Source: an uncultured delta proteobacterium (GTDB lineage Bacteria > Desulfobacterota > Binatia > UBA9968). Taken from it: a DNA stretch of 64,000 nt. This document shows, one piece after another, positions 41,173 to 64,000 of this stretch. Made by a program: the position numbers and the translations under genes. Numbering within the stretch: the first letter of the stretch is position 1; every line of letters starts with the position of its first letter. The DNA lies in contig CAVXEP010000025.1 of the NCBI GenBank assembly GCA_963760795.1, forward strand, positions 1 through 64,000. The letters run 5' to 3'. Below the pieces are notes generated by a model that was not told the origin of the DNA, ran no database searches, and worked only from the letters and a program-made list of their open reading frames with translations.

Positions 41173-41514
41173 CGCAGCTATCAAAGCCTACCCGATCAAA
41201 AGAAATTAGAGTTAAATCTTCACTCACGGAGCAGTAATCCTCTATTTCCAAAAAAGCCTTATAGCGCCTTCTCCCGCAACTGCTTTCACTTCAGGCTCGC
41301 CGTTGAGTAATCTAGTCCTCCCCAGGCTTTGCCGATTTGACTCTATATTTCGATGCTTTCGTTCTCCCTTTTAATGCCGAGTGCAATCCCGTTGCTGCCA
41401 CCCGCCACGGGAACAACATAGGTTTCGATGCCTAAAGACGAAACTGAAGATATTTTCGGATTTTCGGCTAACCATCGCTTTGCGAGGAATGTCCTTTGAC
41501 AGGAGGATCTCACT

Positions 41515-47807: not shown

Positions 47808-48823
47808 GGGTCAAATCTTCTGTTGGCAGATCCCGTAAACAATGTTCTCGATTTGATCCCTAAATCTTCTCTCCTTTTCCATCTTTGACTTGACCCAGTG
47901 ACAGCCCCAACCCACCGCTCCATAGCTTCCTAAGCCAAACAAGCTCGCCGTCTCTTGCAACGTCCTATCACAACATCGCGCCACCAGGTACATCGCCACC
48001 TTACGAGCTTGATTCTCCCTTCCCCTCGTTCCCCGTAAAATCTCCTCTTTTGCGATTCTGTACGTCTGGCTACCTGATCCCGATTACCTGCTCCGCTTCA
48101 GGCTGTAACCCTCGTCGTTCATACCGCGGATGCTCTCGCGCTAGCTTCGCTGTCGGCCCTCTTATTCGCTCGACAAACTGTTCTCCTCCCAACACCGGAC
48201 TCTGACGGCCGGACTCGTAGAACCCCTCCAGGGCTTCCTCATTTCCGGCTAGCACGAACTCGTGAAAGGCTTTCCTTCCTCCCACCTGCTCCAATACTTC
48301 CCTTACGTTGAGCCAGTTCGGCGCTCCTTTGGTTTGCAGATAATACTTATGACTACTCCAACGATAGTCCTCCGGCATTTTCACAATACCTGCGTCCACC
48401 GGATTGAGATGAATGTAGCGAACTACGGCGCTTAAGTGTTCGTCAGCGTCGATTAAAATCGCCTTGTAGCGACCTCGAAACAGGGAGCCGTCGCGCTGAT
48501 GGCTGCGGTTAAAACGTTGGGTGTACAGCCCATCGACATGGCGCATGACGCGGCTCAGATTTCCCTTCGGCGTTCTTAGACATACATGGTAGTGGTTTGT
48601 CATCAGACTATAGGCAAAAACCTCTATGCCCCACTGCTTGTTAGCTTCAGCTACGGTGTTAAGAAACGTCTGGTAGTCGTCGTCTCTTAAAAAAGTTGCC
48701 TGCCTCGCTGTTCCACGGTTCATCACATGGTAAACGGCTCCGGCAAACTGTATCCGTAATGGTCGTGACACGGCGAATACACGTATCAAAACCAAGTGTA
48801 ACTGTCAACAAAAGATTTGACCC
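47808..48823 (-). mobile_element. RAYT element: transposase with DnaA-C-like HTH (CDS 47811..48771, frameshift near 48075) bounded by 21-bp inverted repeats
   Basis: SRPLRIQFAGAVYHVMNRG, LMTNHYH, LFRGRYKA, YIHLNPV; tail RKVAMYL..TLQETASLFG; IRs gggtcaaatcttctgttggca / tgtcaacaaaagatttgaccc (19/21). Confidence 0.85.
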
Positions 48824-48902: not shown

Positions 48903-49559
48903 TCAAGCCTGAGACTTGAACCAGTTGGCTAAGGGTTCTACGATCATGGCCAGGGATTCGGCTGCGCCTTTGAAGTCATAGAAGCCCTGGGCGGTTGAGG
49001 CCACCTTGATGATTTCATCCAAACGATCGGTCCGTCCGGCTAAATGCATCAGGATCACGCAAGTGGTGAACGGATTGCGAACCACGCCCGGACCGCGGCT
49101 CAGGACGTAGTCCAAGGCGCGATTCGGAACGGAGTCGAATCCTTCGATGATCGGAAACGCTTGCTCGCGGACGTCCTTACAGATTGCAGCGGCAATTGCA
49201 TGAAAATCGATGCTTGGCGAAACCTCGAAATGGGAAGCGCTCCGAAGATTGTGCGAGGTACATGAAAAAATGAGTGGAGTCGTAAACGTGGGGTGCGCAC
49301 TCAGGCCGCACGCCTCCATGGTGTCATAGATGATACCGCCGCTGAGCGCGAATAACCAGTAAAGTCCGTAAGTCCCTGGAGGGCGGCTGCCCTTGACCTC
49401 GGCGCAGGCGATGGCGAGGTCGGCACCAGACGTCAATTTGGCCTCCAGCCGCATCTTTGTGCTAACTTTCTTCGACAACTCGCCGGGCACCTCAAGTTCG
49501 GAGAATTGGTTCTTAAGGGCTTGGCCCATCTGCTTTTTTGTATTAGCAAGATCGGACAT
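48903..49559 (-). CDS. Putative immunity protein for the Rhs toxin
   Basis: Directly downstream of and co-oriented with Rhs; aaggt RBS; no recognised family. Confidence 0.65.
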   Translation of the reverse strand: MSDLANTKKQMGQALKNQFSELEVPGELSKKVSTKMRLEAKLTSGADLAIACAEVKGSRPPGTYGLYWLFALSGGIIYDTMEACGLSAHPTFTTPLIFSCTSHNLRSASHFEVSPSIDFHAIAAAICKDVREQAFPIIEGFDSVPNRALDYVLSRGPGVVRNPFTTCVILMHLAGRTDRLDEIIKVASTAQGFYDFKGAAESLAMIVEPLANWFKSQA

Positions 49560-49610: not shown

Positions 49611-52600
49611 CTAAACATCGTATTTTAACACCGAAAACGTGGCCGGTTGCGTTCCGCCTTTGGCAGGTAATCCGGCATTGGTGGTTTTGTCTGGGTTGCC
49701 AGTTGCGACTGTCAAACTTCCTGTTGTTCCCGTGGACGTATCGATCGTCCCACCCGAACTGGTTGACGCGTTGGCTGGTTTGCTCATATCGAAGACCCCC
49801 GAGGCCGCCTGATTGTCCGTGAGCCGCCCAGTACCGTTTTTGACTTCGAACACATGGATAGTGACACCGTCGGGTCCGGTTGTCACGAAGTCGGCCCGAA
49901 CGCGCTGGCCGTTGACCACCATCGTCACCTCTTCGGCCATGATGGTGTGATTGTTAGCAATCAAGTCGGCTTCCGCAGCATCACGCCCGCGTTGACCGCT
50001 GTCATGCGATGCACACAATCCCAACGGATCCAACCAGTTGATCGGATTGGTGCCGTATGCGTAGAAATTGCCGCCCCCCAGCAAACCGCGTGGATCCTGT
50101 GAGATGTAGCGCCCGCTGTCGGGCGAATAATACCTGAACTTGTTGTAGTGCAGGCCGGATTCTTCATCGCGCCATTGGCCTTGAAATCCAATTGGGCACT
50201 CCACTTGGCTTCCGGGCGCTACAAACTCAGCGTCGACTTTCCCCCAGGCCGTGTACGAACGGCTTAGTGCCACGCGGCCATAGTCATTGATCAACTCTCG
50301 CGGCGTGCCCAATTGGTCATGAACGACGCTGAAGCTTCTGCCGTACTGCACTGTCAGCAGCGGTGCGAAGCTCGCGTCGCCGTAGACCCACGCCGAACGC
50401 GACTTGCCCGTCGCATCGGCCTCGTGAATTAGGCGCTCCTTATCCCACAGATAGATGCGCTTCTGCTTTACTAGGCCATTGACCAGCTCCTTGGCGACCC
50501 GGCGTGCCAGGGCATCGTAGCGATAGTGCCAGGTGCGGTCATCTGGATCGGTCACCCACTTCAGGCGATCCAGAGCATTCCACCCAAAGGTCCAGACCCG
50601 CGGGTGTTCTGAGCGTGACCGCTCGATCTTCCTAACCAGCCGTCCTTCAGCATCATATTCGAACCGGGTATCGCCCTGTTCGACCAATCGGTCGCCGTAC
50701 TCATGAAACCTAGCTTCGTCTAGAAAGTGTTGTCCTTCCGAGCGCGAGCGGGTGATGTTGCCAGTGCTGTCGTACTCGAAGCTTTCACTGCTTCCGCGAG
50801 ATTTCATGGTCTGGATCAAGCGTTCAGCAGGGTCGTAGATATAGTCCACCCTACCCCAACGTGCATCATCCAGGCTGCTCAGATTTCCGGCAGCATCGTA
50901 GTCGTAGCGTCGATGGAGCAGTTCGTTACCGCGCGATCCGAGTCGGCTCAGTTGCTGGTCAATCAGTCTGCCTACGCTGTCATAGCGCTGTTCAAGTCGC
51001 ACCCCACCAGGCAAAAGCCTGGCGATTTCTGCCCCATGAGCGTTGCGTTCGATGTGGTGGGATTGGCCACCAGTGGATATGCCAATGACAGCGCCGTTTG
51101 CATCGTTGGTGTAGTCAGTCAGCAACCCGAGGCTGGTGACGGTTTGCACTAGGTGACCTACGGCGTCGTAGCGGCTTTGGACCCAATGGTCTCCCTGCAT
51201 GTCGCGTAGGATACGACCCGATGCATCGCGCTCGAACCGAACTGCGATGTCAGCAGTTGTGGCTTGTTCCAGCTGGCCAAGTGCGTTGAACTGGAAGCGC
51301 ACGAATTCCCCGTCAGGCAGAATTTGGGCCACAATACGCTGTAGCGGGTCGCGCTCTAGCGCCACGGTTTCTCCGTTCGCATTCAAGAACCTGGTAACAC
51401 GATCTTCACCGTTGTATTGAAACTGGCGTTCAGCGCCATCGAAGGCCAGCTCGCGGACGACCTGCCCGCCATCGTTGTAGAAGAACCGGTACCGCTCGCC
51501 TTTGTGATTGATCACTTCATCGAGGCGCCCCGATTCACTACCCCAGACATAGCGCACGCTGTGGCTAGCAGGGTCCATGCGCTCCAACAAGCGGCTGCAA
51601 GGACCGTAGCGCCAACGGATGGCGTGGCCGCTCGGATCAACATATTGAGTTAGGTTGCCGGCGTGGTCATAAGCTGCGCTAATCACCGAACCATCGGGAT
51701 GCGTAATCTGGATCGGCCGCCCGAGCGGGTCGTAGCGGATCCGCGTGACGTCGGCCATAGCACCACGGCGCTCCACCACGCGGCCGAAAGCGTCGAACAC
51801 GAAGTCTCGACGGTGTCCGTTCCAATCGGTGATGGAACGCAAGATGCCGCGGTCAAATATCTGAGTCTTGCGAGCACCCAATGGGTTGGTGAGTTCGCGC
51901 ACATTGCCTTCGTCGTCATAGGCAAAATGCCAACGATTGCCTATCGGATCTACTGAAGCGATCAGCCGATTTGCGGCGTCATAGTGACGCTGCCAAAGCT
52001 GATCTGCGGCATCGGTGAGGGTGTGCGGCAGATGCTGCGAAGTAAAGGTCTGACGCGTAGCCTGTCCCAACGCGTTGACGACAAGCGCGCGGTTGCCCTG
52101 ATCGTCATACTGGTATCGGGTCGTTGCACCAGTGCTGTCGATCTTGGCGCTGATCCGCCCAAAAGCGTCGTACTCAGTACTGTGTAGCGCACCCAAGGCG
52201 CTCCACTCATTGACGACCTGTCCACTAGATAAGTACTGGAAACGCGACGTTGCCCCATAGCTGTTGGTGACTTCCGTGATACGCGCGGCGTCCAGATATT
52301 TCAGTCGCTTTTTGTCGTAGTTGTCTAGTCCTGTGCGCTGAACGCAACGGCCCTTGTGGTCGTAGCGGTAGAGAAACACGGCTCCGTCCTTGAAGACCTC
52401 GCGCGCCAACCGGTGCTTGTCGTCGTACTCGTAGCGATCGGCGAATCCGGCAGCGTCACGGCTCGCGGCAAGCCGGCCAACGCCGTCGTATTCGTAGGAT
52501 GCCACGTCATAGCGCTCGCCGCCGGCTGCCAATAGGGTCAAGCCGTCGATCAGGCCAACTCGGTTGTAACTGAGATCCAGTTGGCGTCCCTCCAGTCGCT

Positions 52601-53069
52601 GACGCACGCTTTCCAGCCGTCCAGCTTCGTCCCAGACTAGATCAAGCCCCTGGCCGCTCACGTTCTCCAGGCTGACGAGGCGCAGCGGAACGCCTTGCTG
52701 ACCAGGCACGAAGATGTAACGCCACACCTCGCCGCTCTCAACATTCCATGTTTGGACGACATAGCGCCCTTCGTACATGAAGATTTCGAAGAAGGCACTC
52801 AGATGCCTGATAAGGCCGCCTCCTTCCACGCTCGCGGTGGGATCGGCCACCAACTCCATGGCGCCAGTAGGAGTGACGAACTGAAACCCTTCGGGAAAGC
52901 GTGTCAGCGTAGTCGCGTAGCGATGCGTCCATCCTCTTCCCAGAGCCTCCGGCGGGTTCTGGATAGCTATTCCACTGTAGCGACGACTCCAGACCAGCGG
53001 CACCTTGCCTGGAATGGCCAAATCCTCGAACTCGGCAAAGACATTGCCGGAAGCAATATCAATGGGCAT
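49611..53069 (-). CDS. Rhs protein (DUF6531 N-term, YD repeats, PD-(D/E)xK-type C-terminal toxin)
   Basis: PIDIASG..LGRGW; YD repeats; FQGQWRDEESGLHYNKFRYY..DPRGL..NPINWLDPLGL; tip E..RADFV..FEVK..LTDNQ. Confidence 0.92.
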   Translation of the reverse strand: MPIDIASGNVFAEFEDLAIPGKVPLVWSRRYSGIAIQNPPEALGRGWTHRYATTLTRFPEGFQFVTPTGAMELVADPTASVEGGGLIRHLSAFFEIFMYEGRYVVQTWNVESGEVWRYIFVPGQQGVPLRLVSLENVSGQGLDLVWDEAGRLESVRQRLEGRQLDLSYNRVGLIDGLTLLAAGGERYDVASYEYDGVGRLAASRDAAGFADRYEYDDKHRLAREVFKDGAVFLYRYDHKGRCVQRTGLDNYDKKRLKYLDAARITEVTNSYGATSRFQYLSSGQVVNEWSALGALHSTEYDAFGRISAKIDSTGATTRYQYDDQGNRALVVNALGQATRQTFTSQHLPHTLTDAADQLWQRHYDAANRLIASVDPIGNRWHFAYDDEGNVRELTNPLGARKTQIFDRGILRSITDWNGHRRDFVFDAFGRVVERRGAMADVTRIRYDPLGRPIQITHPDGSVISAAYDHAGNLTQYVDPSGHAIRWRYGPCSRLLERMDPASHSVRYVWGSESGRLDEVINHKGERYRFFYNDGGQVVRELAFDGAERQFQYNGEDRVTRFLNANGETVALERDPLQRIVAQILPDGEFVRFQFNALGQLEQATTADIAVRFERDASGRILRDMQGDHWVQSRYDAVGHLVQTVTSLGLLTDYTNDANGAVIGISTGGQSHHIERNAHGAEIARLLPGGVRLEQRYDSVGRLIDQQLSRLGSRGNELLHRRYDYDAAGNLSSLDDARWGRVDYIYDPAERLIQTMKSRGSSESFEYDSTGNITRSRSEGQHFLDEARFHEYGDRLVEQGDTRFEYDAEGRLVRKIERSRSEHPRVWTFGWNALDRLKWVTDPDDRTWHYRYDALARRVAKELVNGLVKQKRIYLWDKERLIHEADATGKSRSAWVYGDASFAPLLTVQYGRSFSVVHDQLGTPRELINDYGRVALSRSYTAWGKVDAEFVAPGSQVECPIGFQGQWRDEESGLHYNKFRYYSPDSGRYISQDPRGLLGGGNFYAYGTNPINWLDPLGLCASHDSGQRGRDAAEADLIANNHTIMAEEVTMVVNGQRVRADFVTTGPDGVTIHVFEVKNGTGRLTDNQAASGVFDMSKPANASTSSGGTIDTSTGTTGSLTVATGNPDKTTNAGLPAKGGTQPATFSVLKYDV

Positions 53070-53076
53070 GGGTCAA

Positions 53077-53880
53077 TTACTTTGGTTCGCAACCGCAACT
53101 TTCCTCGCCTTGGCGACTCCCGCGCTGTCCCAGCCGGTCCACGCCCGCGGACACCCCCGCGCTCACCGCCCCCTGCGCTGCATTCACCGCAAGCGCCCGC
53201 ACCATGTCCGCGATACTCACACCCACCATCACGTTGCTGAAACCAATCGTCGCCGCATTGGGCACAATGATAAGGTCGGTGCAGGATGTCGCCATCAGAG
53301 GCGCAACAAACGCAAGCGGGCCACCATTAACGGTCACGTTGGGACTGCCGATCGCGGCGGAACCTTGACTGCCCGGATACGGTATCGGAGGCATGAGTAA
53401 TTTAATCCATGTCGACCATTGTGTGTACGCGCCGAAGCTACTCTTCACCGTGTCCCATACGCCACTCCAACTTGACGTATCCACCCCCGTCACGTCCTTA
53501 ACAAATTTTCCAGCTGCAGAGTCTGGTTTCACAAATATCGCCGAGATTCGGGAGATCGCCAGATTTGCCAATAGCGTCAGAGCAACTAGCATGAGCTGTT
53601 TCGGTATGTTCAGCAAATAGCGCCGCCAGTACATCATATTGAGCATCGACGGAGGTGCGGGCGCTCCCTGTGGAATATGGACGGAGTAACCCATGCAACC
53701 TGCCGCGCCTGCCGGCATGCCGTTTATGAGCGTATCGATCTTGGCGAACGCAGGCGTCATCCATAAAAAGATGCAGCCAAAGTACGGATGGGGCAGCATC
53801 GGCACGGGCACCACTATAATCACCATGTGAAAATCGATGCCGATCACCATATCCGTCATTTTCACAGCGGGCCAAAGCAT
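53077..53880 (-). CDS. PAAR-like spike protein (Rhs-type N-terminal module)
   Basis: GIDFH..PHPY, INGMPA, GSPNVTVNGGPLA, SNVMVG. Confidence 0.75.
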   Translation of the reverse strand: MLWPAVKMTDMVIGIDFHMVIIVVPVPMLPHPYFGCIFLWMTPAFAKIDTLINGMPAGAAGCMGYSVHIPQGAPAPPSMLNMMYWRRYLLNIPKQLMLVALTLLANLAISRISAIFVKPDSAAGKFVKDVTGVDTSSWSGVWDTVKSSFGAYTQWSTWIKLLMPPIPYPGSQGSAAIGSPNVTVNGGPLAFVAPLMATSCTDLIIVPNAATIGFSNVMVGVSIADMVRALAVNAAQGAVSAGVSAGVDRLGQRGSRQGEESCGCEPK

Positions 53881-53893
53881 ATTATTCCTCTTC

Positions 53894-54271
53894 CTATTTC
53901 GCGATCTCTACTACTTCGAGTCTTCCCGTAATTCTGGTGCGGCGAATCTTTACTTGCACGGTGTCGTTAGCCGATAGTGATTCGAATTGTTGCTTCGATA
54001 CCAGCGCCGCCGTGGGTTCACCAACGACGGTGAGCATAACCACATAGGTTTCGGGCCTCTCTTGCGATTGAACCCAGCTTCTACCGCCGGCTATTGTCGT
54101 GTGATAACTTGTTCCGCTCTCGTTAAATTGCTTTCCCGTCACCCTTCCAACCGCGCTCCGCACCTCAAGTCCTGTTCGGTCTATGGCGCCATAGATGAAA
54201 TATAAGAGCACAGCGCCGATGGCGACCAAGGAGAATAAATAGATAAATGGGTTTGCACTGAACGGTGTCAT
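53894..54271 (-). CDS. Small membrane-anchored protein (DUF2500-like)
   Basis: N-terminal TM, GRVTGK, V-S..F..L..D-V pattern. Confidence 0.6.
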   Translation of the reverse strand: MTPFSANPFIYLFSLVAIGAVLLYFIYGAIDRTGLEVRSAVGRVTGKQFNESGTSYHTTIAGGRSWVQSQERPETYVVMLTVVGEPTAALVSKQQFESLSANDTVQVKIRRTRITGRLEVVEIAK

Positions 54272-54290: not shown

Positions 54291-55415
54291 TCAAGTCACA
54301 GAAACTTCCATCTTGCGCATCTGAGGCAGCCAATCTGGTCCGGGATAAGGGATCGCACCGCGCCAGACGAGATCGATCTGACGGTCTTCCATCCGTATCA
54401 TTACCGTGTGCATCACCACTTCCGGTTCTTGTGCTCCGGAGCCGATGTCTAACCCTACGCGGGGCATGTCGTAAGGTAATCTAAACGACAAGGCTCCTTC
54501 TGGACTTAGATTTTCCGTGGCAACCTGTTCTCCCCCCTTGAGATATGGGAAAATAAGCCCAGCTGAGGCGCCGTTGAAGAAGCGAAAGTCCATATCCGGA
54601 AGACCATGCTTCAGGTAGGCCTCGCGCTGGCCGGCTGGGACCAGCTTTGCGTACGCCTGCCGCAGTTCTTGTTCTGTCGCGCGATCCGCGGGCAAGATTC
54701 CCGCGAGTTGCGCGCGCGGCAGCCAGGTCTTTGGGAACCAGCCGAGCCCCGCGGGAAAAGGCTGCTGTTCCCATCTTTTGTAGTCTCCAAGGCAAAGTTG
54801 CTCAGGGGTAAGCCGTGCGGTTGGGTTCTCCAAATTTGGCAGGGCAAGATTATTCAGACACCTTTCGGAGTTAGTCATAACAAAGCCGCGTCCCATTGGG
54901 TTCCGGGGATACGGATAGGACGCCACTTTGTCCGAGTAGACATCGATGCCGCCATAGGCAAGTTCGTAGCGTAGCTCCATGCTCAGGAAAGGCGAGGGCT
55001 CGGTAAATCTAGGCGGGCCGTTTTTGACAAAGCGTGCGACCCGGTCACCGATCACCAACACCTGCTTGCGCCGATTCTCCACTTGCAATGCGACCATGCA
55101 CAAATTCGTCGGTGTGCCTCGCGGCGCATACGCCTTGCCATTCAACACCACGTCCGTCGCAAGTTTAAACGGGATAAAGTCGCTCTCGTATCGAACTGAG
55201 GAATTCATTGGATCGTCCCACGGCACGTCCCCAGGGTTTAACGCTTTGTCCGCTGCGGTGCGGCTGCACACTCCGTTGGGCACGATGTCGTAAGTGCGCT
55301 TGAGCAGAACGCTCAGAACATATTTTCCTTCCGGCGTTTGGCCCGGCAGTACAACCGTGACACCACGCGCTTCGGTCGCATCGGTCACGGTCTCAGCGGC
55401 AGCGGACATACTCAT
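54291..55415 (-). CDS. DUF2169 T6SS adaptor, copy 1
   Basis: KRTY, YESDFIPFK, GKAYAP, YELAYGG, NPMGRG, LPNLE, FFNGA, LVWRG. Confidence 0.85.
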   Translation of the reverse strand: MSMSAAAETVTDATEARGVTVVLPGQTPEGKYVLSVLLKRTYDIVPNGVCSRTAADKALNPGDVPWDDPMNSSVRYESDFIPFKLATDVVLNGKAYAPRGTPTNLCMVALQVENRRKQVLVIGDRVARFVKNGPPRFTEPSPFLSMELRYELAYGGIDVYSDKVASYPYPRNPMGRGFVMTNSERCLNNLALPNLENPTARLTPEQLCLGDYKRWEQQPFPAGLGWFPKTWLPRAQLAGILPADRATEQELRQAYAKLVPAGQREAYLKHGLPDMDFRFFNGASAGLIFPYLKGGEQVATENLSPEGALSFRLPYDMPRVGLDIGSGAQEPEVVMHTVMIRMEDRQIDLVWRGAIPYPGPDWLPQMRKMEVSVT

Positions 55416-55417
55416 CT

Positions 55418-56513
55418 TCAGCTTATTTCAGCGTTTAGCCTTTTCATTTGCGGCAACCATGAGTAGCCTTCATAGACGCAACCGCCGCGCCAGATCATGT
55501 CCATTTCTAAGTCGTCCGGCCGTATACTGATAGTGTCCAGCTTGGCTGAGAGCTGCTGGACACCCAAGCCAATGTCCAGCGTAATGTTCGGAGTCTCGCC
55601 GGGCAGAAGAAAATCCAAAAGTACTTCGGGCGATAATCCGCGAAGAGTCACCTTCTCATCGCCCTTGATGTCACCAAACAACATCCCGTACGACGCGCCA
55701 TTATTTAGGAGCGGATGATAGCTCGGCAACTTGAACTGTTTCGCAAGCGCAATATGGTTCTTGGGCACCAAGCCCAAGCGCTCTTCTGTAGTTACCGTAT
55801 CCACATCGACAAACGCTGGATAAGAGCCTGCATACGCAGCAACGCGGATACCAGGTGCGCTGGAACCAGCCAAATCCTTGCGGCAAAGGCTGCTCTGGCC
55901 ACCTTGCAGGTTCGCCAAGGACGATCCGTTCCGGGGTCAAGAGATCATTGGGATCTTCAAGGTTTGGTAACGCCAGACCTTGGACCGTCTCTTTGACATT
56001 GCGCAACGCGACACCTTTTCCCATGTAGTTGCGTGGATAGAAGAACGGAATGTTCGGATCACTCGTCTCATCGCGGCCGCCGTAAGCGCGATCGTAGCGA
56101 ATCTCCATTTCGGTGAACGGCTTCGGTTCGGAAAATTTGGGTGCTATGTTCGCTCGATATTGGCAGTCGCGGTCGCCGAACACGGTGATTGATTTTTCGC
56201 GCTCCGCAACACGGACAGTGACAGTCATTTTAGTTGTCGGTACACCACCTGGTGCATACGCCTTCCCGATGATGACGATATCCACCAGAGGTTTGAAAGG
56301 GGCCAGCTCATATTCGTACTGGACTGTGGACCACTCAGGATCACCATCGTCGTAGTAAGCATCAGTTTTTCGCAGCTCGTGATCATTCGCACATCGTTCT
56401 ACAACGCTTCCAGGCTTGATCGTATAAGTACGCTTTACGATCACTGAGAATATGTGCTCCCCTCGATCATTCTTGCCCGGCACAATCTCAAAAGCCCCGT
56501 TTGCACTAGCCAT
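55418..56513 (-). CDS. DUF2169 T6SS adaptor, copy 2 (frameshift near 55840)
   Basis: KRTY, ELAPFKP, GKAYAP, YDRAYGG, LPNLED; C-term LDTISI..MIWRG in ORF 55418..55918. Confidence 0.85.
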
Positions 56514-56539: not shown

Positions 56540-58562
56540 TCAGGGATTAAGCATGACCATGCCACCTTTGACCGTGTTCGTTGCAGAGCCCTCAGATATT
56601 ACGATCGCGCCTTTTGTCTGGTGCTCCGCGGTGGCCTCCGAGTGAACAATTTGGCCCTTGATCGTAACGGTATTGGATGCACGGAGGGTGATATTCACGC
56701 CCTCAATCGAGATATCCCCATTGCTTTCCATGCGTAATTTGCTGGCGCCCACCCACAGTTCGATGTGGGTCGCCGCCCAGGAATGAATATGCGCGGTTTG
56801 AGACGTAATATCGATCTCCTTTTTAACCGTATTCGTCTCTTTCCCTTCGGTAACAAGGATCGTCGTATCTTTTTTGATCGTCTCGTGATGAGTCCCATCG
56901 ACCATGATGGTCCGGTTGTTATGAATCGTTTGCGAGTCATCATGCTCAATAGTTGTAGCCATGTCGTACTGACCGTGAATCGTGATCTTTTCCTTGCCGA
57001 CCGTATCGTCCATCGACATCTCGTTGTAGCCCTTGCCCTTGTGGGTGTTGGTCTTTCGCCCGCTGACGACCTTTGCCGCCGGAAGGGCACTCGCCGGCAT
57101 TTGTTCTGCGTTGTAGACACTGCCGATAACAATCGGTTGGTCGGGATCGCCCTCGAGAAAATCGACGATGACTTCCTGGTCGATCCGGGGAATGTTGATC
57201 ATGCCCCATTGCTTCCCCGCGGAAAGAGTCGAAACACGAATCCAACAGGAACTGTTTTCATCTTTCTTGCCTTCGCGGTCCCAGTGGAACTGCACTTTTA
57301 TCCGGCTGTATTTGTCGGTGAAAATCTCTTCTCCGGCAGGACCGACCACAACGGCAGTCTGGGTGCCCTGGACAAAGGGTTTGGGAGTTAGCCGTTCGGG
57401 CCGGTAGGGCACGGCAAAGGGGATGCAGGTAAAACGATTGTCATAGCTGAAATTCGTCGATTCGGTGTCGATAGCCACTCCCCTGCGTCGCCGTGTGGGT
57501 CACGCTGGTGAGCAGATACTGGCCGTCGGCGTTGAAGTGTCGTTCCAGCGAAAATTTGTGACCGGTCACGAAGCTGGCGACAATTGCTCATGCCCTGAAT
57601 AACGATGCCCGGGACGGTTTCCTGCTGCATGCGAATGTCTGTGGTGCGCCGGTTGTCCTCGAAAATCTTTTGTAAGTCGGCGGCGCGATCGCCTCCACCC
57701 CGGTCGACACCATCAAACCGCTGGGCGTATTCTCCGGGAAAGTCATAGATTTCGAGCTTGTCGTTGCCATTGACTTTGAGCTTGTGGTTCACCTGGCCGA
57801 CTTGTACGCTATCGACAATCTGCGCTTCTGCCTCGAGATGCTTGTGCGGCAACTCAAAACAATGATCCCAAAGCGTATATTTTCCCGAGCGCCACTCTTG
57901 GGTCTTTTCCCACTCGTAAATGCGGTCTTCATCCCGTAGCCCACCACCCACTTCTTCATAGATAATTTTATTGCTGTGCGGCATATCGGAGTGGCTCATG
58001 GTCGTGTTGGCAACCACCATCTTGTGACCGTCGCGCCGTGTGCTTGAAGAAATAGTAGATGCCCTCTTCCTCCATCAATCGACTGGCAAAGTTGAAGTCG
58101 GTTTCGCGGTATTGCACGCAGAAATCCCGCGGATGGAAAGTTCCGTGGATCTCGATACGTGACGTCGAGGCCTTCAAGCACCTTTTTTAGAATATCGGGC
58201 ACCGACTTCTGTTGAAAAATCCGGCTCTGGGCCTTCTTCGTCAGCTTCCAAAGTTCGGGCACGATTTCGAGCCGGTAGTGGATAAAGACGTCGTCCCGTC
58301 CGCCTTGACTGAAACGGTTACAGATACCGCTGAAGAAACGCTGCTGTTGTCCCAGGTAAGTCCAGCCGGATGCCGAATCTTTTGGCCGAGCAGCTTATCG
58401 AACGCGACGTCCCGTTCTTTGTCTTTCTCAGCGACAAGATCGAGTTCGAAACTGTACAAACGGCGAAACCGCCTCGTGGCCGGTGAATCCCACCAACAAG
58501 AGAACGTCTTTCCCCAAAGGTGTGGTCACCCCCATGAGTCGGTTATCTTGGGTATAGGTCAT
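56540..58562 (-). CDS. vgrG: VgrG (TssI) spike protein, several frameshifts
   Basis: MTYTQDNR..TPLGKDVLL; FCVQYRETDFNFASRLMEEEGIYYFF; QTAVVVGPAGEEI..KVQFHWDR..SCWIRV..PRIDQEVIVDFLEGDPDQP. Confidence 0.9.
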
Positions 58563-58593: not shown

Positions 58594-61264
58594 CTATGAG
58601 ATCTCGTAGCGGAACGCGCCGTTATCCCCGACGCTGACCTGAACCCTCGCGAAATTCCCTCGCCACGCGCCATCCGGCTCAAGAACTCGCGCGAAATCTC
58701 CGGTAACAGCGTACGCGTGAGAATATGGTCGACGTTGCGCGCTCCGCTTTCGACCTCGGTGCAGCGGTGCGCGACTTCTTCCACCAATGCCGGCGTCGAA
58801 GGAAAACAGCGCCCGATGATTTTCCATCAGCCGGGCCGCGAATGCGTCCGAGCTGCAGCTCGATGATCTTGCGCATGATATCGTCGGCGATCGGATAGTA
58901 GGGCACGATGATCGCGCGCCCGAGAAACGCCGGCTTAAAGACTTTCAGTAAATCGGGACGCAAAGCTTCCGCCATCGCGTCTGGCTCCGGCCGCGTATCA
59001 GGGTCGGCGGAGAGTTTCATGACCGTATCCGTGCCGACATTGGAGGTCATGATGATGAGCGTATTCTTGAAGTCGATTTCACGACCCTCAGCGTCCTCGA
59101 GCATGCCCTTGTCAAAGACCTGGTAGAAAAGCTCCATGACATCGGTATGCGCTTTCTCGATCTCATCGAGAAGCACGACGGAGTAGGGCTTGCGCCGTAC
59201 CGCCTCGGTGAGCACACCCCCCTCGCCATAGCCGACGTACCCTGGCGGCGAGCCTTTGAGCCCTGAGACTGTGTGGCCTTCTTGATATTCGGACATGTTG
59301 ATAACGACCAAATTTCGTTCGCCGCCGAAGAGCGTATCCGCGAGAGCTAGCGCAGTTTCGGTCTTGCCAACGCCGCTCGGGCCGACGAGCATGAAGACAC
59401 CGATGGGACGCCGGGGATCTTCCAACTTCGCCCGCGAGGTACGGATCCGTTGACTGATCGCTTCGAGGGCATGGGCTTGGCCGATGACCCGTTCTTCTAG
59501 CCGGTCTCTGAGCGCCAACACGGTCTGGATTTCATTTTTAACAACTTTCCCGACTGGGATCCCGGTCCAACCAGAAACCACTTCGGCCACAGTCTGGGCA
59601 TCCACACATACCTGCATGAGCGGAGTATCGCCCTGAATTTTGCTCAGCTCGTCGTTGAGGCGAGCAATTTCACCCTGCAGGCGCTTTACTTCGTCAGACG
59701 AAAGCCGACCTTCGGCTTTGGCGTCACCTGATTTAACCGTGGCCGCGTGGGCTTCAAGCTTCTCACGAATGACGCGTAACTGGGCGACGCGTTTCTTCTC
59801 TTCCTCCCAACGCTCCTCTAACGTGGCGAGCCGCGATTGCGCCTCACTTTTCGTTTTCGCTAGCCCTTCTAAACGCTCGGTAAAGATAGCCCCTATCAGA
59901 CTCTCGCGCTCCAGAATGGCGGATTCCGTTTCGATCCGTCTAATTTGCCGCTGGCAGTCCTCGATAGCCGGTGGGGTGGTCATCTGGCCCAATGCTACTC
60001 TCGCGCAGGCGGTATCGAGGACACTCACGGCTTTGTCCGGAAGTTGTCTGCCAGTGATGTACCGATGAGAAAAACGGACGGCAGCGTCCATAGCTTCATC
60101 CAAGACGCGCACGTTATGATGCGCTTCTAAAGTGCTTACTAAACCGCGCAACATTGCCACCGCCTGCTCTTCCGAGGGTTCGTCGACTTTCACAACCTGG
60201 AAGCGCCGAGTCAAAGCGGCGTCCTTTTCGAAATATTTTTTATACTCCGACCAGGTCGTGGCGGCGATAGTGCGCAGTTCACCACGCGCCAACGCTGGCT
60301 TCAAAATATTTGCCGCATCCCCTTGCCCCGCCTGGCCACCGGCGCCGATCATAGTGTGAGCCTCGTCAATAAAGAGAATAATCGGTTGCGGCGAAGCTTT
60401 GACTTCCTCGATAACCGATTTGAGGCGATTTTCGAATTCTCCTTTTACTCCGGCGCCCGCTTGCAGCAAAGTCAGGTCCAGGGTTTTCAGCGCGACGTTT
60501 ATTAACGTCTGCGGGACGTCTTTCTCCGCAATCCGTAAGGCCAGGCCTTCGACGACGGCTGTTTTACCAACGCCGGCCTCACCCGTAAGGATCGGATTAT
60601 TTTGACGGCGGCGGGTTAAGATATCGACCATTTGGCGGATTTCAAAATCCCGTCCTAGAACGGGATCGATCTGACCTTTGCGTGCTCGGTCCGTCAGGTC
60701 GATGGTAAATTGATCCAGGCCAGGGGTCTTTGTCGGCCCTCGGACACCAGCTTCTTTCGATTCAGCCGCCAGCGGGGATTCGTATTTATCTTCCACTGTT
60801 CCCGCGACCAAATCAGGCAAATTCTTGTGCAACTCCTCCACGGAGATCTTCTGGAACTCAGCCGACGCTTCCCGGGCAAGGCGGCTTAAGCTTTCCTCCG
60901 AGAGTAACGCCAATAAAAGATGCCCGGATCGAACCTTATTGGCGCCGTAATCAACCGAGGCCAAATTCCAAGCTTCCGTAATGATGCGCGGGATGTGCGG
61001 CGATAGCGCCGGGGTGCGCGCGTTACCAGTTTTCAAGCGATCTAAAGCCCGAGTCAAATCACGCGTAAGCCTCGTTTGGTCAACTCCGTATTGGTGCAGG
61101 ATACGCTGGATGTCCGTATCCTGCGATTCGGCAAGTTTCAGAAGAAAATGCTCGATATCGACGTCGTAATGGGTGCGCGCAAGGCAGAGACCAGCCGCCG
61201 CCTCCAATGCATTACGACCCGTGTCGTTGAGTTTGCCGATCAGGGATTTCAGGTTGAGGTTCAT
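58594..61264 (-). CDS. tssH: T6SS AAA+ ATPase ClpV (C-terminal frameshifts)
   Basis: LKSLIGKLN, LTRRRQNNPILTGEAGVGKT, GPSGVGKTETALALA, ESGARNVD. Confidence 0.93.
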
Positions 61265-62366
61265 AGCCGATGCCCCCTTGCATCCTTGCTTGACTGTCCT
61301 TGTAGTGCGCGGCCTGTATCCTTGTCAAATGGCTTCCAAGAATCGCCTGGTCGGCGTCACGAGAAAAATCGCGCGTCTTGAGCCAACTGGACCAGCCCAA
61401 TCTAAATGCGTTTGCACCAGGCTTGCGAAGTTCGCACTTAGGAACCTCTGATGCTTTGAGGATAAGCTGGCAACTAAAGTCGTGAACCGCTCCTGACATG
61501 AGTCGGGTGAGCTGGACCACGGACTTGAACGCCCATCCTGAGGGAAGAAAATCGCAAAATCTCTCGAATTTGAGTGGTCCGATTTTGATTCTAAACCCCG
61601 CCTGCTGATCCCAAGACCTCGAACCTAGAAAAGCACCCATGCCGATTTGATTGTTGCCATCGTCCCCACCAAGACGCGTCCGGTATTCGTCGCTAACACG
61701 CAACCACGCGCCAACGAATTGTTCGATCTTAACCGGGACGTCAAAATAGTCCCGCAGGACTGCTTCCAACGCGGATGCTGAGCACGGCTGCTGTACCAGT
61801 AGTCCGCCATAATGTAACAAAACCTCATCGCCGGTCGCCATTCTGCCTTGAAGCCCTCGCGTCCCCATGCCGACGAAATGGAAAAGGCAATCGGAAAACG
61901 CATCGTAACCGCTTCCGGAAGTTCTCGATCTCTCGTACGCAATGGGAAACCGGTACTTTTCCCACGCCCGATAAAAGAGAGAAATCATGCGATGATTGAA
62001 GATATCGAGGAAGTCGAGCAGCGTTGTGTCTTTGTAACGCACCCGTTCGAGAAGTAGCTCGGTGTAATGTCTGGGCAAGACTCCCGTGAGCCCTGTCAGG
62101 CCCATAAAAGCTACGGTCATCTGCGCCGGAGAGTTTTCATCGGCCGGCCGCGCGACATCCTGCACAGCGCTGGGTGGAAAAGTTAAAGATAGGAGTGAAC
62201 GAAAGCGAACTGCTTCATTGGATGGTGAAGTCTCACCGCCGACCGCACGCCGATTCGGGAAAAGGCGTTCGATCACACGAACCGCTTGAAAGAAATCAAA
62301 TCGAAAACCCTCTTCGTAAAGAATGTGGTCTAGAGGAGGATCTGTTCTCCGGCTCTCGGTGGCCAT
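61212..62366 (-). CDS. tssG: T6SS baseplate subunit TssG
   Basis: FDFFQAVR, FMGLTGLTGVLPRHYT, FLDIFNHR..FYRAWEKY, IEQFVGAW, LGWSSWL. Confidence 0.9.
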   Translation of the reverse strand: MATESRRTDPPLDHILYEEGFRFDFFQAVRVIERLFPNRRAVGGETSPSNEAVRFRSLLSLTFPPSAVQDVARPADENSPAQMTVAFMGLTGLTGVLPRHYTELLLERVRYKDTTLLDFLDIFNHRMISLFYRAWEKYRFPIAYERSRTSGSGYDAFSDCLFHFVGMGTRGLQGRMATGDEVLLHYGGLLVQQPCSASALEAVLRDYFDVPVKIEQFVGAWLRVSDEYRTRLGGDDGNNQIGMGAFLGSRSWDQQAGFRIKIGPLKFERFCDFLPSGWAFKSVVQLTRLMSGAVHDFSCQLILKASEVPKCELRKPGANAFRLGWSSWLKTRDFSRDADQAILGSHLTRIQAAHYKDSQARMQGGIGYEPQPEIPDRQTQRHGS

Positions 62367-64000
62367 CGCTTGAGTGTCTCCTCACGTTGTTGAGTTTTGG
62401 CGATCAGTTGGGTAAAGGAATTCAGTGACGTATAAAGACCCAAAAAACGTTCCAGCACGGCGGCGAAAAGAAAAACGCCACTCCCGACGTATTTCTCTTC
62501 ATCGAACTCTATCGTGACTTCCAACCCTCGGCAGAAGCCGTTCCAGGACATAGAACGCGGACGCCCGACGACCTGCCTCCCGGTCACCGCGGTGATGCCG
62601 GCGATCTGTTGTCGTACCACCGCCGAGTCGGCAACATCATAGAGTCTTAGTATCTCCTGGAGCGCGTCTCGCCCCCCGTCGAATAAAGATAAGTAATTCA
62701 GAGTCAGGTGAGAAATCAGTCGCCACTGAACGCCGCGCCGCGACGGCGCCCGCATGGTTTCAGTTGGCTTCTTTAAGCAGCGAATCCGCGACAACGGTGC
62801 CGCGCCTTCCAACTCGAACTCGCTGCGGTCACCGCCAAAGGGGAGCTTACCAGGGAGATCCCGGTTGCTGCAGGTTGCATGTATAATAACGGTATCGACT
62901 GCCGGTAGGGTCGGGCGAAACTCCAGATCGACCAAGGAAAGATAGACTTCGGTACCGGTATCGCCTTTTTTGGGAGATGGTCTTCGTGCCGCATACCAGA
63001 AGGCCTGCTGGCGTTCCCGTTCCGCCGCATGTTTGAAGGAATAAAAAGGCTGGTATTCGACGGTTTCATCGGTTCCTGGCGTGACGCTGATGACCGAGTC
63101 AACGGCGTAGACCTCCGTAGCGTTCTGACGGCGTACGTCGGGTATCACCTGGTATTCGGTCTGCGCGTGACTTAAACGGATGGGCTCGGCAATCTGGTTG
63201 AACAGGTTCACGATCGGCGCACAGCCCAAACGAAAGGTTTCTTTCGTCACAGGCTGTTCCAGTCGAGGCATTCGATTCAGCAAAATCTGGATCTCGAAGC
63301 CGTCAGCCGATTCATTCTTGATGGCCTTGCTTAGACCCGTCAGATCAAAAAAAAGAAATTTTTCCGGAAAACTAAAATATTCCTGCAACAGACGGTAACC
63401 GAGAAACGAACGTGAGCCGTAAGGTAACAGTCCTTCATCGGCGGCGAAGCCCACGGGGAGAATCGTCGTCGCTGGCAGCCGTACCGCCGTCCTGCTCTGC
63501 GTAGCAGATCGCGGCCGAATGCGGATTTCAATAACGTTGTTGAAAAGCAGCTCATAAAGAGTGTAAGTCAGCCGTGCTTCGCCGTGAATAAAAAATCGTA
63601 GCCGGTCAAGTTCAAGTTCAGCCAGGGACATGCCTGCTAGGCAACGAAGTTCAAGCCTGATCAATCCCAAAGCGGACCGGGGGAGTATTCCCTGACGCGA
63701 CGAGTCCACCGTTTCCAACCCGGCCGCTTCCACTTCGAGTGGCCAGAGAGTGGTTGGATAACAAGTGCGGAATCTGCACGGCGACCCCGCCACAGGCTGC
63801 GAATAGAGCGTAGCCCCTTTTTTAATGGCGTAACCACTGCCGATTTTTCCCTGGTCCGCATCGAGGACAAACTGGACGATGGACATGGAAGGAATCGGCG
63901 CCAGATAGTGGGGGTAGAGGACGTTGAGGAGCGATTCGGTGATTTCCGGGTATTCGTCCTCAATCTTGTGATGCACCCGCGCGGCGAGAAAAGCAAAGGC
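62330..64000 (-). CDS. tssF: T6SS baseplate subunit TssF (5' end outside window)
   Basis: YPHYLAPIPSM, GYRLLQEYFSFPEKFLF, LGCAPIVNLF, WRLISHLTLNYLS, WPPRAG. Confidence 0.92.
   Translation of the reverse strand, partial: AFAFLAARVHHKIEDEYPEITESLLNVLYPHYLAPIPSMSIVQFVLDADQGKIGSGYAIKKGATLYSQPVAGSPCRFRTCYPTTLWPLEVEAAGLETVDSSRQGILPRSALGLIRLELRCLAGMSLAELELDRLRFFIHGEARLTYTLYELLFNNVIEIRIRPRSATQSRTAVRLPATTILPVGFAADEGLLPYGSRSFLGYRLLQEYFSFPEKFLFFDLTGLSKAIKNESADGFEIQILLNRMPRLEQPVTKETFRLGCAPIVNLFNQIAEPIRLSHAQTEYQVIPDVRRQNATEVYAVDSVISVTPGTDETVEYQPFYSFKHAAERERQQAFWYAARRPSPKKGDTGTEVYLSLVDLEFRPTLPAVDTVIIHATCSNRDLPGKLPFGGDRSEFELEGAAPLSRIRCLKKPTETMRAPSRRGVQWRLISHLTLNYLSLFDGGRDALQEILRLYDVADSAVVRQQIAGITAVTGRQVVGRPRSMSWNGFCRGLEVTIEFDEEKYVGSGVFLFAAVLERFLGLYTSLNSFTQLIAKTQQREETLKRWPPRAGEQILL

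Follow-up and report, generated by a model that had tools for sequence, protein, structure and literature searches.

A PAAR-like protein and an Rhs cage encoded by adjacent genes: a probable two-gene form of PAAR-Rhs type VI secretion effectors

In the window, the whole stretch of 64,000 nucleotides from an uncultured Binatia bacterium analyzed here, a PAAR-like protein and an Rhs protein are encoded by separate genes, and this split is genuine and the norm across the family rather than a lesion. The locus is probably a natural two-gene form of the PAAR-Rhs effectors of type VI secretion systems (T6SS). Judged by alignment, the boundary of the Rhs gene is the position equivalent to the proline at which TseI, RhsA and Rhs1 undergo N-terminal autocleavage.

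The gene junction and its conservation

All features described below lie on the minus strand. The PAAR-like open reading frame (ORF; 267 aa, 53077..53880) ends in EESCGCEPK and a TAA codon (53079-53077). After a spacer of 7 nt (53070..53076), the Rhs ORF (1152 aa, 49611..53069) begins in a different frame with an ATG (53069-53067) and the N-terminus MPIDIASGNVF, without an N-terminal delivery domain. Within the spacer, the Rhs frame has a TGA (53075-53073), two codons 5' of the Met-Pro start. Re-reading of the ORFs thus gave the same anatomy as the preliminary description, that is, SCGCEPK, TAA, 7 nt, MPIDIASG and a TGA in the Rhs frame. Its statement that no single indel can fuse the two genes holds for indels of 1-2 nt, because the Rhs-frame TGA lies downstream of the TAA, but not for a longer deletion covering both stops, which could do so. 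The lack of a strong Shine-Dalgarno sequence before the Rhs ATG was also confirmed, with no GGAG-type sequence ahead of it.

Nineteen related genome loci were examined. In 16 of them the PAAR-like ORF is intact and the junction can be read, giving 17 junctions with that of the window. The two genes are separate in all 16, and the split loci span several phyla, including Gemmatimonadales, Terriglobia, Vicinamibacterales, Nitrospirales and Pirellulaceae/Gemmataceae, with further examples in Variovorax, Rhodoferax and Thiodiazotropha, among others. Spacers at the related junctions range from -4 to 53 nt, and over the 17 junctions the stop codon of the PAAR-like gene may be TAA, TGA or TAG. In addition, 700 clusters of stand-alone PAAR-like homologues (146-468 aa) were found versus nine fused clusters (469-2000 aa); among the 120 stand-alone clusters listed, lengths are 252-271 aa and identities 71-91%. 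The RefSeq annotation calls the same two genes in two Variovorax genomes. The case in which all close homologues are fused and the window allele is unique, raised in the preliminary description as one that would count against a real split, is therefore contradicted.

The Rhs start expected from that description, MP[IV]D, is present in all 14 of the closest database relatives of the Rhs protein (1128-1158 aa, with varied toxin ends) and, exactly, at eight of the 17 junctions. One GTG-PVDV and one MAIDI raise the number starting directly at [P/A]-[I/V]-D to ten. The remaining seven Rhs genes carry a leader of 8-17 residues ahead of G-H-P-V-D-V or G-D-P-V-D, so that gene boundary and scissile bond do not always coincide. 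In fused relatives (identity 32-64%), the two parts are joined as G-[E/H/D]-P-[I/V]-[D/N], with the joint before the Pro falling where the split lies.

The Rhs protein and the autocleavage site

The Rhs protein starts with a DUF6531 plug ('cork') domain (residues 2-69, 52863..53066; Pfam E 6.8e-16, model positions 3-69), continues with the RHS/YD repeats of the shell (PF05593, E 3.4e-70; TIGR01643 in 11 stretches) and reaches the Rhs-associated core at residues 939-1018 (50016..50255; TIGR03696, E 1.8e-23). The core contains DPRGL and, 17 residues later, DPLGL followed by Cys. D1014, P1015, G1017 and L1018 are conserved among Rhs relatives, and a C-terminal aspartyl autocleavage site is predicted after L1018, the DPxGL-type aspartyl autoprotease motif having been described in PMC8636562. 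The toxin domain (residues 1019-1152, 49614..50015) gave nothing above cut-off against Pfam. It is homologous to the toxin domain of Pseudomonas protegens RhsA, a predicted DNase (PMC8765631), the last 139 aa matching 7q97 chain residues 1286-1426 at E 3.1e-22. Directly 3' of the toxin lies a 218-aa ORF (48903..49559), a putative cognate immunity protein without a match in Pfam or NCBIfam, which is 67% identical to the ORF following an Rhs with the same toxin in Variovorax rhizosphaerae. The locus thereby shows the features of a T6SS-Rhs polymorphic toxin: an RHS/YD shell, a DPxGL core, linkage to T6SS genes and VgrG, and a downstream putative immunity gene.

Solved Rhs cages are matched down to E 1.7e-116, the best structural-database match being P. 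protegens RhsA (PFL_6096; PDB 7Q97), of prePAAR-TMD-PAAR-Rhs architecture. Pro2 of the window Rhs aligns with P361 of the S. bongori core and with position 289 of Photorhabdus laumondii Rhs1, and the HMMER envelope on RhsA begins at chain position 245, which is residue 305 (offset 60, verified with H530, C538 and H555). Cleavage has been located at C420/P421 in TseI of Aeromonas dhakensis, at H304/P305 in RhsA and at D288/P289 in Rhs1, so that RhsA P305 corresponds to Pro2. The stretch from P2 to G8 (P-I-D-I-A-S-G) fits the pattern P-[V/I]-x-x-x-[T/S]-G seen where the shell of autocleaving Rhs effectors starts, and is the aligned counterpart of the cut motifs of TseI (PVSMVTGE) and Rhs1 (PVYVASGE); across 21 sequences, P2, D4 and G8 do not vary. 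The earlier proposal that the Rhs ORF opens at the autocleavage Pro is hence in agreement with the alignments and with the joint in fused relatives.

The residues reported to drive cleavage in the known proteins are not conserved. TseI needs E428 and E429, at +7/+8 from its site, which correspond to N9 and V10 in the window Rhs; the C/H/H cluster near the RhsA cut is replaced by E224, F232 and T246; and the position of D288, needed before the Pro in Rhs1, is taken by the initiator Met1. A split form, in which the N-terminal delivery domain that TseI, RhsA and Rhs1 carry covalently is encoded by a separate gene, would have no use for such residues. It should be noted that a gene boundary at this place is to some extent expected, as the DUF6531 domain begins at the cleavage site itself. 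Fission at a domain boundary should keep both domains, and 'pre-cleavage' thus gains no independent evidence from the agreement between gene boundary and cleavage site.

The PAAR-like protein and its cassette

In the AlphaFold2 model of the 267-aa protein (pLDDT 82.3), two beta-rich halves (residues 1-70 and 170-220) flank a helical insertion of about 80 residues, hydrophobic by hydropathy (residues 84-162). A PPIPYPG motif follows at residues 164-170; it contains P165-I-P-Y168, an instance of the P(I/V)P(Y/F) motif defined for DUF4150/PIPY domains (PMC11883445), with P165 and P167 nearly invariant and P169 invariant. The C-terminal helix (residues 223-259, 53104..53214), conserved up to about residue 246, is a candidate docking or 'anchor' element by its likeness to the anchor helix of RhsA. 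The protein closes with a variable Cys/His tail (residues 260-267, 53080..53103; EESCGCEPK end), its E-P agreeing with the [E/H]-P seen in fused relatives.

No family model confirms the label 'PAAR' given in the preliminary description; the upstream protein is PAAR-like and divergent. No model in Pfam or NCBIfam matched it. PAAR_motif (PF05488) gave no match at E <= 10 and stayed below cut-off in ten of 52 relatives (best E 1.8e-4, 22 bits versus a cut-off of 27). DUF4150 (PF13665) likewise gave none, with hits in just two of the 52 relatives at E >= 0.27, and the prePAAR model PF25799 had no match at E <= 10. Sequence profiles matched no solved structure. Foldseek placed the protein on PAAR c1882 (4jiw_D) with a target-normalized TM of 0.74 and a probability of 0.60, but at E 1.4, none of its hits reaching E <= 0.001; leads from the Atlas were PAAR_motif and prePAAR_I clusters (score 0.88).

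The gene immediately 5' of the PAAR-like one (53894..54271) encodes a protein of 125 aa that has a single hydrophobic helix at its N-terminus and is 55% identical to its counterpart in locus L002; 11 of the 19 loci have an ORF of 123-154 aa in the equivalent place. Beyond it are an intact 374-aa DUF2169 protein (54291..55415; Pfam E 3.6e-66), a second DUF2169 gene in two frames with a single frame change near 55840 (55418..56513), a broken VgrG spike gene recovered as five tblastn pieces in three frames (56540..58562), and the T6SS core genes ClpV, TssG and TssF (58679..63976). With its cognate VgrG and a DUF2169 gene disrupted, the system may not be active in this bacterium. The order VgrG, DUF2169, DUF2169, 125-aa protein, PAAR-like, Rhs and putative immunity is conserved among loci. 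In a scan of ten, VgrG and two DUF2169 ORFs occur in seven; L017 has a 934-aa ORF in the vgrG position matching DUF2169 only, and upstream sequence was absent or not supplied for L015 and L016.

The 304-residue N-fragment of RhsA, with hydrophobic helices, PAAR and a helix by the cut, stays non-covalently bound after cleavage and resembles the 267-aa protein in layout; its sequence has no detectable similarity to that protein. Unlike the two genes of the window, RhsA is a single self-cleaving polypeptide with an Eag (DUF1795) chaperone, and the cassette has two DUF2169 genes instead, no DUF1795 gene being found among the cassette ORFs scanned. TseI and Rhs1 are also single chains, TseI with a non-PAAR N-domain, and their fragments remain associated after N-terminal cleavage. 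The gene order VgrG, DUF2169, PAAR-like is shared with the DUF2169-dependent DUF4150/'PIPY' tips and Tvp systems (Tse7, VP1415, Agrobacterium tumefaciens Tde2, Serratia marcescens Paar1), and DUF2169 proteins have been reported as necessary for PAAR-like spike tips (PMC11883445; PMC13373197). The window protein has the P-I-P-Y of such tips but no DUF4150 match, and differs from them in its helical insertion and separate Rhs partner. Two DUF2169 paralogues with a 125-aa hydrophobic protein fall outside the three classes described in PMC13373197. Tc toxins have been compared with RhsA in the literature.

In the Tc toxins, TcB and TcC are separate polypeptides that assemble non-covalently into an Rhs-type cocoon. 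Their split falls within the cocoon, and they are not delivered by a T6SS, whereas the split in the window separates a delivery module from a complete cage.

Alternative readings and the proposed model

Given the family-wide split, it is scarcely credible that a single PAAR-Rhs ORF was broken by recent mutation, pseudogenization or assembly error, even though frame breaks affect two other cassette genes of the window, VgrG and a DUF2169 gene, and fused relatives exist. Separate genes are seen at every one of the 16 related junctions that can be read, and stops and spacers differ among them; the 700 stand-alone clusters, the uniform MP[IV]D start of the closest Rhs relatives and the two annotated Variovorax genomes point the same way, and both frames carry stops at the window junction. 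Programmed recoding, in which a frameshift or stop read-through yields a fused PAAR-Rhs protein, is very improbable as well. It could be imagined at L002 and L012, where the ORFs share one frame with a single stop between them, but the frame relation varies by locus, L011 has two in-frame stops, L005 has an ATGA overlap, and the window would need a frame change in spite of stops in both frames. Moreover, no common slippery sequence or spacing is apparent over the 17 junctions.

A more serious, though still unlikely, alternative accepts two real genes and takes the Rhs protein as ordinary cargo loaded via a DUF2169 protein, the 125-aa hydrophobic protein or VgrG, with the PAAR-like protein only sharpening the spike and the plug boundary being a mere domain boundary. 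Three accessory genes are conserved in the cassette, and the literature describes TseI using separate parts to bind VgrG and chaperone, Rhs effectors that can follow VgrG and PAAR genes, and many PAAR-linked toxins coming from neighboring genes. On the other hand, no N-terminal domain is left on the Rhs protein for binding, the plug beginning at residue 2; in relatives the same PAAR-like domain is covalently joined to Rhs at this very point; and the variable PAAR-like tail differs in step with the class of Rhs N-terminus across the junctions.

In the favored two-gene model, the first gene would provide a delivery module, a PAAR-like cone that should cap VgrG and that bears the hydrophobic insertion, the C-terminal helix and the short tail. 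The second would provide the Rhs cage only, from plug domain to autoproteolytic core, with the RhsA-type toxin inside. As the gene boundary coincides with both the joint of fused relatives and the self-cutting site, the cell would directly make the fragments that others obtain by N-terminal autoproteolysis. The Rhs ATG may be translated through coupling to the PAAR-like gene. By the rule that methionine aminopeptidase removes Met before Pro, Met1 would be lost and the mature Rhs protein would begin with Pro. The C-terminal helix and tail of the PAAR-like protein might attach to the Rhs plug or cage without a covalent bond, by analogy with the cleaved N-fragment of RhsA, while the DUF2169 proteins may chaperone the PAAR-like protein onto VgrG.

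Separate genes could also let differing Rhs cores swap behind one conserved spike adaptor. Over 91 locus pairs, the PAAR-like body is 58-96% identical versus 27-68% for the Rhs shell (Spearman 0.27); the window shares 83% and 32%, respectively, with L005, and 79% and 68% with the V. rhizosphaerae locus, L009. These discordant identities fit the interchangeable cores suggested earlier, and could partly reflect different evolutionary rates instead of exchange. If the two-gene model is true, a contact-weapon toxin usually made as one self-cutting protein would be encoded pre-divided, in this bacterium and in many relatives.

The junction and the autocleavage site

In the window, the PAAR-like protein and the Rhs protein are encoded by adjacent open reading frames (ORFs) on the minus strand. 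The PAAR-like ORF (267 aa, 53880..53077) ends in GEESCGCEPK before a TAA at 53079-53077, a spacer of 7 nt (TTGACCC) follows, and the Rhs ORF (1152 aa, N-terminus MPIDIASGNVFAEFEDLAIPGKVPLVWSRRYS...) runs from an ATG at 53069 to 49611, an anatomy that the preliminary description had given accurately. The two frames differ and the spacer carries a TGA (53075-53073) in the Rhs frame; because a stop is present in each frame, no indel of 1-2 nt fuses the two genes, but the wider statement that no single indel could do so fails for a longer deletion across both stops, which a fusion in the window would need. The caveat on translation initiation was well placed, as no GGAG-like Shine-Dalgarno motif lies upstream of the Rhs ATG at this junction.

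A scan of one genome per species yielded 19 related loci from very different lineages, 16 of them with an intact PAAR-like ORF and a readable junction; outside this count are one locus at a contig edge (L006) and the loci L018 and L019. All 16 junctions consist of a stop, a spacer or overlap, and a separately started Rhs, so the close homologues are not all fused and the view that the split is not a break is upheld. Stops (TAA, TGA, TAG), spacers (-4 to 53 nt) and frame relations vary between loci, so that the split is not a lesion and the arrangement is old and maintained; the variation also counts against a shared recoding signal.

Both L018 and L019 are decayed copies. In L018 (8001-8762), a junction deletion removes PAAR-like residues 225-267 and Rhs residues 1-137, and in L019 (8001-9272) frame changes are found in both genes, with the parts still apart. 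At two other loci, L002 (8784-8828) and the Variovorax locus L012 (8814-8822), the ORFs lie in the same frame, separated by one stop and 13 or 1 sense codons, respectively; read-through there would yield a fused chain, and the other loci exclude read-through as a general rule.

Stand-alone PAAR-like homologues were recovered as 700 clusters in a search restricted to 146-468 aa, and the 120 matches listed are 252-271 aa long and 71-91% identical to the window protein. Over 469-2000 aa, the matching search returned 9 clusters, in each of which the PAAR-like part is fused to Rhs (1372-1477 aa, 40-64% identity), the ratio of 700:9 being rough because word filters limited both searches; an exhaustive search of 50%-identity representatives added fusions of 1382-1462 aa at 37-42% identity, and longer chains of 1586-1821 aa with a further domain. 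A quick, midpoint-rooted tree with SH-aLRT support places the window protein and the 30 close homologues sampled in a single group (support 91) whose members are all split; fused forms lie outside it, and the starred branches require at least three state changes; as the root is not established, neither fission nor fusion is claimed. Six further relatives (P0159, P0160, P0161, P0169, P0176 and P0179) are single chains of about 1586-1821 aa that join a gp5-type OB domain (Phage_base_V, DUF6484), the PAAR-like part and a full Rhs, with varying toxins (HNH, AHH, Ntox24); spike-like, tip and cage elements occur together in each of them.

Among single-chain Rhs effectors that cleave themselves, the reported cuts fall at C420/P421 ahead of PVSMVTGEELL in TseI of Aeromonas dhakensis, at P305 in RhsA of Pseudomonas protegens (PDB 7q97), and at D288/P289 of PVYVASGE in Rhs1 of Photorhabdus laumondii, whose paper sets the new N-terminus one residue later; in all three, the fragments are reported to remain associated. 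A search of PDB sequences with only the first 140 residues of the window Rhs gave no match, and the full-length query was used instead. There, the residues aligned with Pro2 of the window Rhs are P361 of the Salmonella bongori Rhs, whose crystallised core starts from residue 360, position 289 of Rhs1, and position 175 of the Vibrio parahaemolyticus Rhs. For RhsA, the printed alignment starts from D16 and the HMMER envelope from chain position 245; with a chain offset of 60, checked against H530 (H at chain position 470), C538 (C at 478) and H555 (H at 495), the envelope begins at RhsA residue 305. The proposal that the Rhs gene starts at the autocleavage proline is thus supported by these alignments.

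The boundary is exact in 10 of 17 junctions (the 16 readable loci and the window), where Rhs starts directly at the motif: eight begin M-P-[I/V]-D, one begins GTG-P-V-D-V behind a GGAGG, and one begins M-A-I-D-I. Rhs keeps a short leader in the other seven, as M-x(7-16)-G-H-P-V-[D/S]-V in five and as M-...-D-P-R-L-V-G-D-P-V-D in two. An MP[IV]D start was also found in all 14 close database relatives of the window Rhs (1128-1158 aa, 43-70% identical over the first 200 residues, several different toxin ends), two of which are the proteins of the Variovorax loci L009 and L012. Fused relatives carry the same C-terminal helix and a short linker that ends in ...C-x-R-P-G-[E/H] or ...G-[L/G]-[E/D], followed directly by P-[I/V]-[D/N]-P-V-T-G or P-[I/V]-D, respectively. 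On the upstream side, [E/K]-P stands just before the stop in the window (C-G-C-E-P-K) and in two Variovorax relatives (E-P-P-A, K-P-Q-G), which places the junction proline on both sides of the split, and one third of the 120 listed homologues end in ...[S/N/T/D]-H or -H-P, the latter being the residue pair at which RhsA is cut (H304 and P305).

As the cleavage site is the first residue of the plug (DUF6531 model position 3), a viable fission must hit the preceding linker, and the coincidence is therefore partly built in. Three findings exceed this expectation: 10 of 17 junctions are exact, many upstream proteins end in His or His-Pro, and the split persists across phyla.

The PAAR-like protein and its cassette

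The 267-aa protein was matched by no Pfam or NCBIfam model, and its label of 'PAAR' came from the preliminary description and some database sources. When 52 relatives were scanned singly, sub-threshold PAAR_motif matches were found in 10 (best E 1.8e-4) and very weak DUF4150 matches in 2, while a family profile run against PDB sequences found no solved structure and only a chance antibody match. A first AF2 model, built from 52 mostly close homologues, was poor (pLDDT 55.4) and was set aside; a second, for which the alignment was widened with fused and distant relatives, reached pLDDT 82.3 and pTM 0.68. It places beta-rich regions at residues 1-70 and 170-220, a helical insertion at 84-162, within which hydropathy marks a hydrophobic stretch (96-117), and a long C-terminal helix at 223-259. 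Foldseek returned nothing at E <= 0.001 with this model, and its sole meaningful row was the PAAR protein c1882 (4jiw_D), at E 1.4 and probability 0.60, with a TM of 0.74 when normalised to the target of 93 residues. A protein-language-model atlas gave PAAR_motif and prePAAR_I clusters at 0.88, which serves as a lead only, and residues 165-168 read P-I-P-Y, a motif recently used to define DUF2169-dependent 'PIPY' PAAR-like domains (PMC11883445). Taken together, the sub-threshold matches, the modelled fold, the atlas lead and this motif give the name: the protein is probably PAAR-like but divergent, carries a helical, hydrophobic insertion, and is a certified member of neither the PAAR nor the PIPY family. 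The label 'PAAR' is thus confirmed by no family model, and PAAR-like is the looser term used here.

The genes around it form a recurrent cassette. On the minus strand, the T6SS core genes for TssF, TssG and ClpV lie upstream of VgrG (56540-58562), which tblastn with the VgrG of L002 recovers as five pieces in three frames, the N-terminal pieces at low identity. Next come two DUF2169 paralogues about 40% identical to each other and both conserved in related loci, one (55418-56513) with a frame change near 55840 and the other (54291-55415) intact, and a 125-aa protein with a single N-terminal hydrophobic helix (53894-54271), located between the second paralogue and the PAAR-like gene. The order VgrG, DUF2169, DUF2169, ~125-aa protein, PAAR-like, Rhs and small ORF recurs in related loci, where the ~125-aa gene, found at 7607-7984 in L001, at 7596-7973 in L002 and in others, always keeps the place that it has in the window. 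A Pfam scan of 10 loci found VgrG and two DUF2169 ORFs in 7; L017 has a 934-aa ORF with a DUF2169 match only at the vgrG position, and for L015 and L016 the upstream sequence is missing or was not included.

DUF2169 proteins have been reported to be necessary for PAAR-like spike tips to form with VgrG (PMC11883445; PMC13373197), and the three classes of Tvp, the known DUF2169-linked accessory systems, do not, as described in the latter source, include two DUF2169 paralogues and a small hydrophobic protein. The 125-aa protein has no family match, apart from a weak DUF2500 match below the cut-off in L001 alone, and it may chaperone the PAAR-like protein at its hydrophobic insertion. The PAAR-like family is an uncharacterised one that current domain models miss, with an accessory set of its own, and it is found in phyla in which T6SS effectors are little studied.

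On the other side, the immunity gene is separated from a class-V aminotransferase gene (40009-41184) by an IS200-like Y1 transposase gene (48070-48795) and IS3-type HTH fragments (46847-47532 and 43201-44034). Because VgrG and one DUF2169 gene are frame-broken and IS-type genes stand beside the cassette, the window copy may be decaying, or the assembly may contain indel errors. The aminotransferase gene is found one or two ORFs after Rhs in five related loci (L001, L002, L007, L011 and L017).

The Rhs cage, its toxin and the variable tails

The window Rhs is a complete cage without any N-terminal delivery domain: family models match the DUF6531 plug (residues 2-69), RHS/YD repeats and then the Rhs-associated core (939-1018). 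The core carries DPRGL, 17 residues and DPLGL followed by C, and this spacing is the published arrangement of the C-terminal aspartyl autoprotease (PMC8636562). The final 139 residues of the protein have a match (E 3.1e-22) in the toxin end of RhsA from P. protegens (PDB 7q97), a toxin that its authors predicted to be a DNase (PMC8765631). The next gene (48903-49559, minus strand; 218 aa) has no family match and is 67% identical to the ORF after a same-toxin Rhs in a Variovorax rhizosphaerae locus; in being conserved with the same toxin, this putative immunity gene behaves as expected of one.

The two halves of the effector differ in how far they are conserved. In 91 pairs from 14 loci, identity is 58-96% for the PAAR-like body (first 245 residues) and 27-68% for the Rhs shell (first 1000 residues from the proline), with a weak Spearman correlation of 0.27; identities to the window are 83% for PAAR-like and 32% for Rhs in L005, 80% and 30% in L003, and 79% and 68% in the Variovorax locus L009. 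Conservation of the PAAR-like protein ends at about residue 246 and the tail beyond is variable. Across the 17 junctions, C-x-C tails precede an M-[P/A]-I-D start of Rhs in 8 and a leader with GHP in 2, [S/N]-H(-P) tails precede a leader with GHP in 3 of 3, and H-x-C-S tails precede DPRLVGDPVD in 2 of 2. Since tail and Rhs start are adjacent in DNA, their association in these sequences shows a recombination boundary upstream of the tail rather than co-evolution of the tail with the Rhs N-terminus; the latter was considered and dropped, because neighbours inherited together give an association only. Interchangeable cores behind one adaptor, as previously suggested, fit the discordant identities and the tail classes, with a tail of its own for each core.

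Between loci assigned to Gemmatimonadota, Acidobacteriota, Nitrospirota, Planctomycetota and Pseudomonadota (L001-L017), PAAR-like identities of 58-96% are unusually high for such distances and suggest that the cassette has spread laterally, that constraint is very strong, or both. In Rhs, Cys242 (about 52344-52346, minus strand; motif G-R-C) is invariant across 21 aligned Rhs partners of the family and lies four residues from the equivalent of H555, a member of the C/H/H cluster that stands close to where RhsA is cut. This cluster is not kept in the window Rhs, which has E224, F232 and T246 instead.

How a two-gene effector may be assembled

The mechanism proposed here, which as a whole we consider fairly probable, starts from what is observed, namely the two-gene anatomy and its conservation, the equivalence of the boundary to the cut site, the fused sisters, the cassette and the modular pattern. 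Translation of Rhs would be coupled to that of the PAAR-like gene, given the 7-nt spacer and the lack of a Shine-Dalgarno motif in the window; related loci show an ATGA overlap or 3- and 7-nt spacers. Methionine aminopeptidase, which removes Met before Pro, would take off Met1, and the mature cage would begin with the proline that opens autocleaved cages. The PAAR-like protein would hold the plug or cage non-covalently through its C-terminal helix and tail. This hydrophobic protein would be kept competent for VgrG by the DUF2169 proteins and perhaps also by the 125-aa protein, and after delivery the cage would free the RhsA-type toxin, already cut after DPLGL.

The main rival holds that another cassette protein loads Rhs and that the PAAR-like protein only caps the spike. 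The 304-residue N-fragment of RhsA is reported to consist of prePAAR, TM helices, PAAR, seal peptide and anchor helix and to be held by a helix inside the cage, and the 267-aa protein is like it in the order of its parts (cone, hydrophobic helices, helix, short tail); other Rhs structures are described in a bioRxiv preprint as having no such inner helix. A fused relative could not be used to relate the C-terminal helix of the 267-aa protein to the anchor helix of RhsA, as the alignment begins past the junction, and a complex prediction of Rhs residues 1-930 with PAAR-like residues 212-267, entered as alignments, scored 0.01 against a mark of 0.32 and is evidence neither way. We regard loading by another cassette protein as rather unlikely, and non-covalent holding by the PAAR-like protein is the preferred reading.

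A bolder reading joins these elements, and as a whole it is rather improbable: the covalent link between adaptor and cage would be dispensable, and a widespread T6SS lineage would encode the 'cut' in its genome. As the two genes are translated in a coupled manner, the C-terminal helix and Cys/His tail of the adaptor would be caught by Rhs while its plug and cage fold, and would replace the seal peptide and anchor helix of RhsA; the adaptor, itself highly conserved, would serve as a universal handle behind which Rhs-toxin-immunity cassettes with their own tails recombine. Since all tail classes end in Cys/His and the invariant Cys242 lies near the equivalent of the RhsA cleavage pocket, this trans-lock could involve a shared metal site.

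The literature already notes that an Rhs gene can be located downstream of one for PAAR, and that neighbouring genes encode many of the toxins linked to PAAR. In the main text of openly accessible articles, no description was found of a gene boundary at the N-terminal autocleavage site in a PAAR/Rhs family, of fused sisters beside such a split family, or of this PAAR-like family with its accessory set. Salmonella STM0291, considered as a separate PAAR gene upstream of Rhs, was discarded, as its paper names it the full-length main rhs gene.

That T6SS Rhs effectors cleave themselves at the N-terminus is established, but the literature has not settled on a mechanism or a purpose: published accounts name three different sets of required residues, and one calls the mechanism unknown. 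A large natural family in which the two fragments come from two genes, with sister lineages that are fused, offers a ready-made comparison, and matched split and fused pairs could be used to study the attachment of the N-fragment, the opening of the cage, and the carriage of different Rhs cores by one adaptor. The split family argues that it is the non-covalent two-piece state that matters, and not the chemistry of cleavage.
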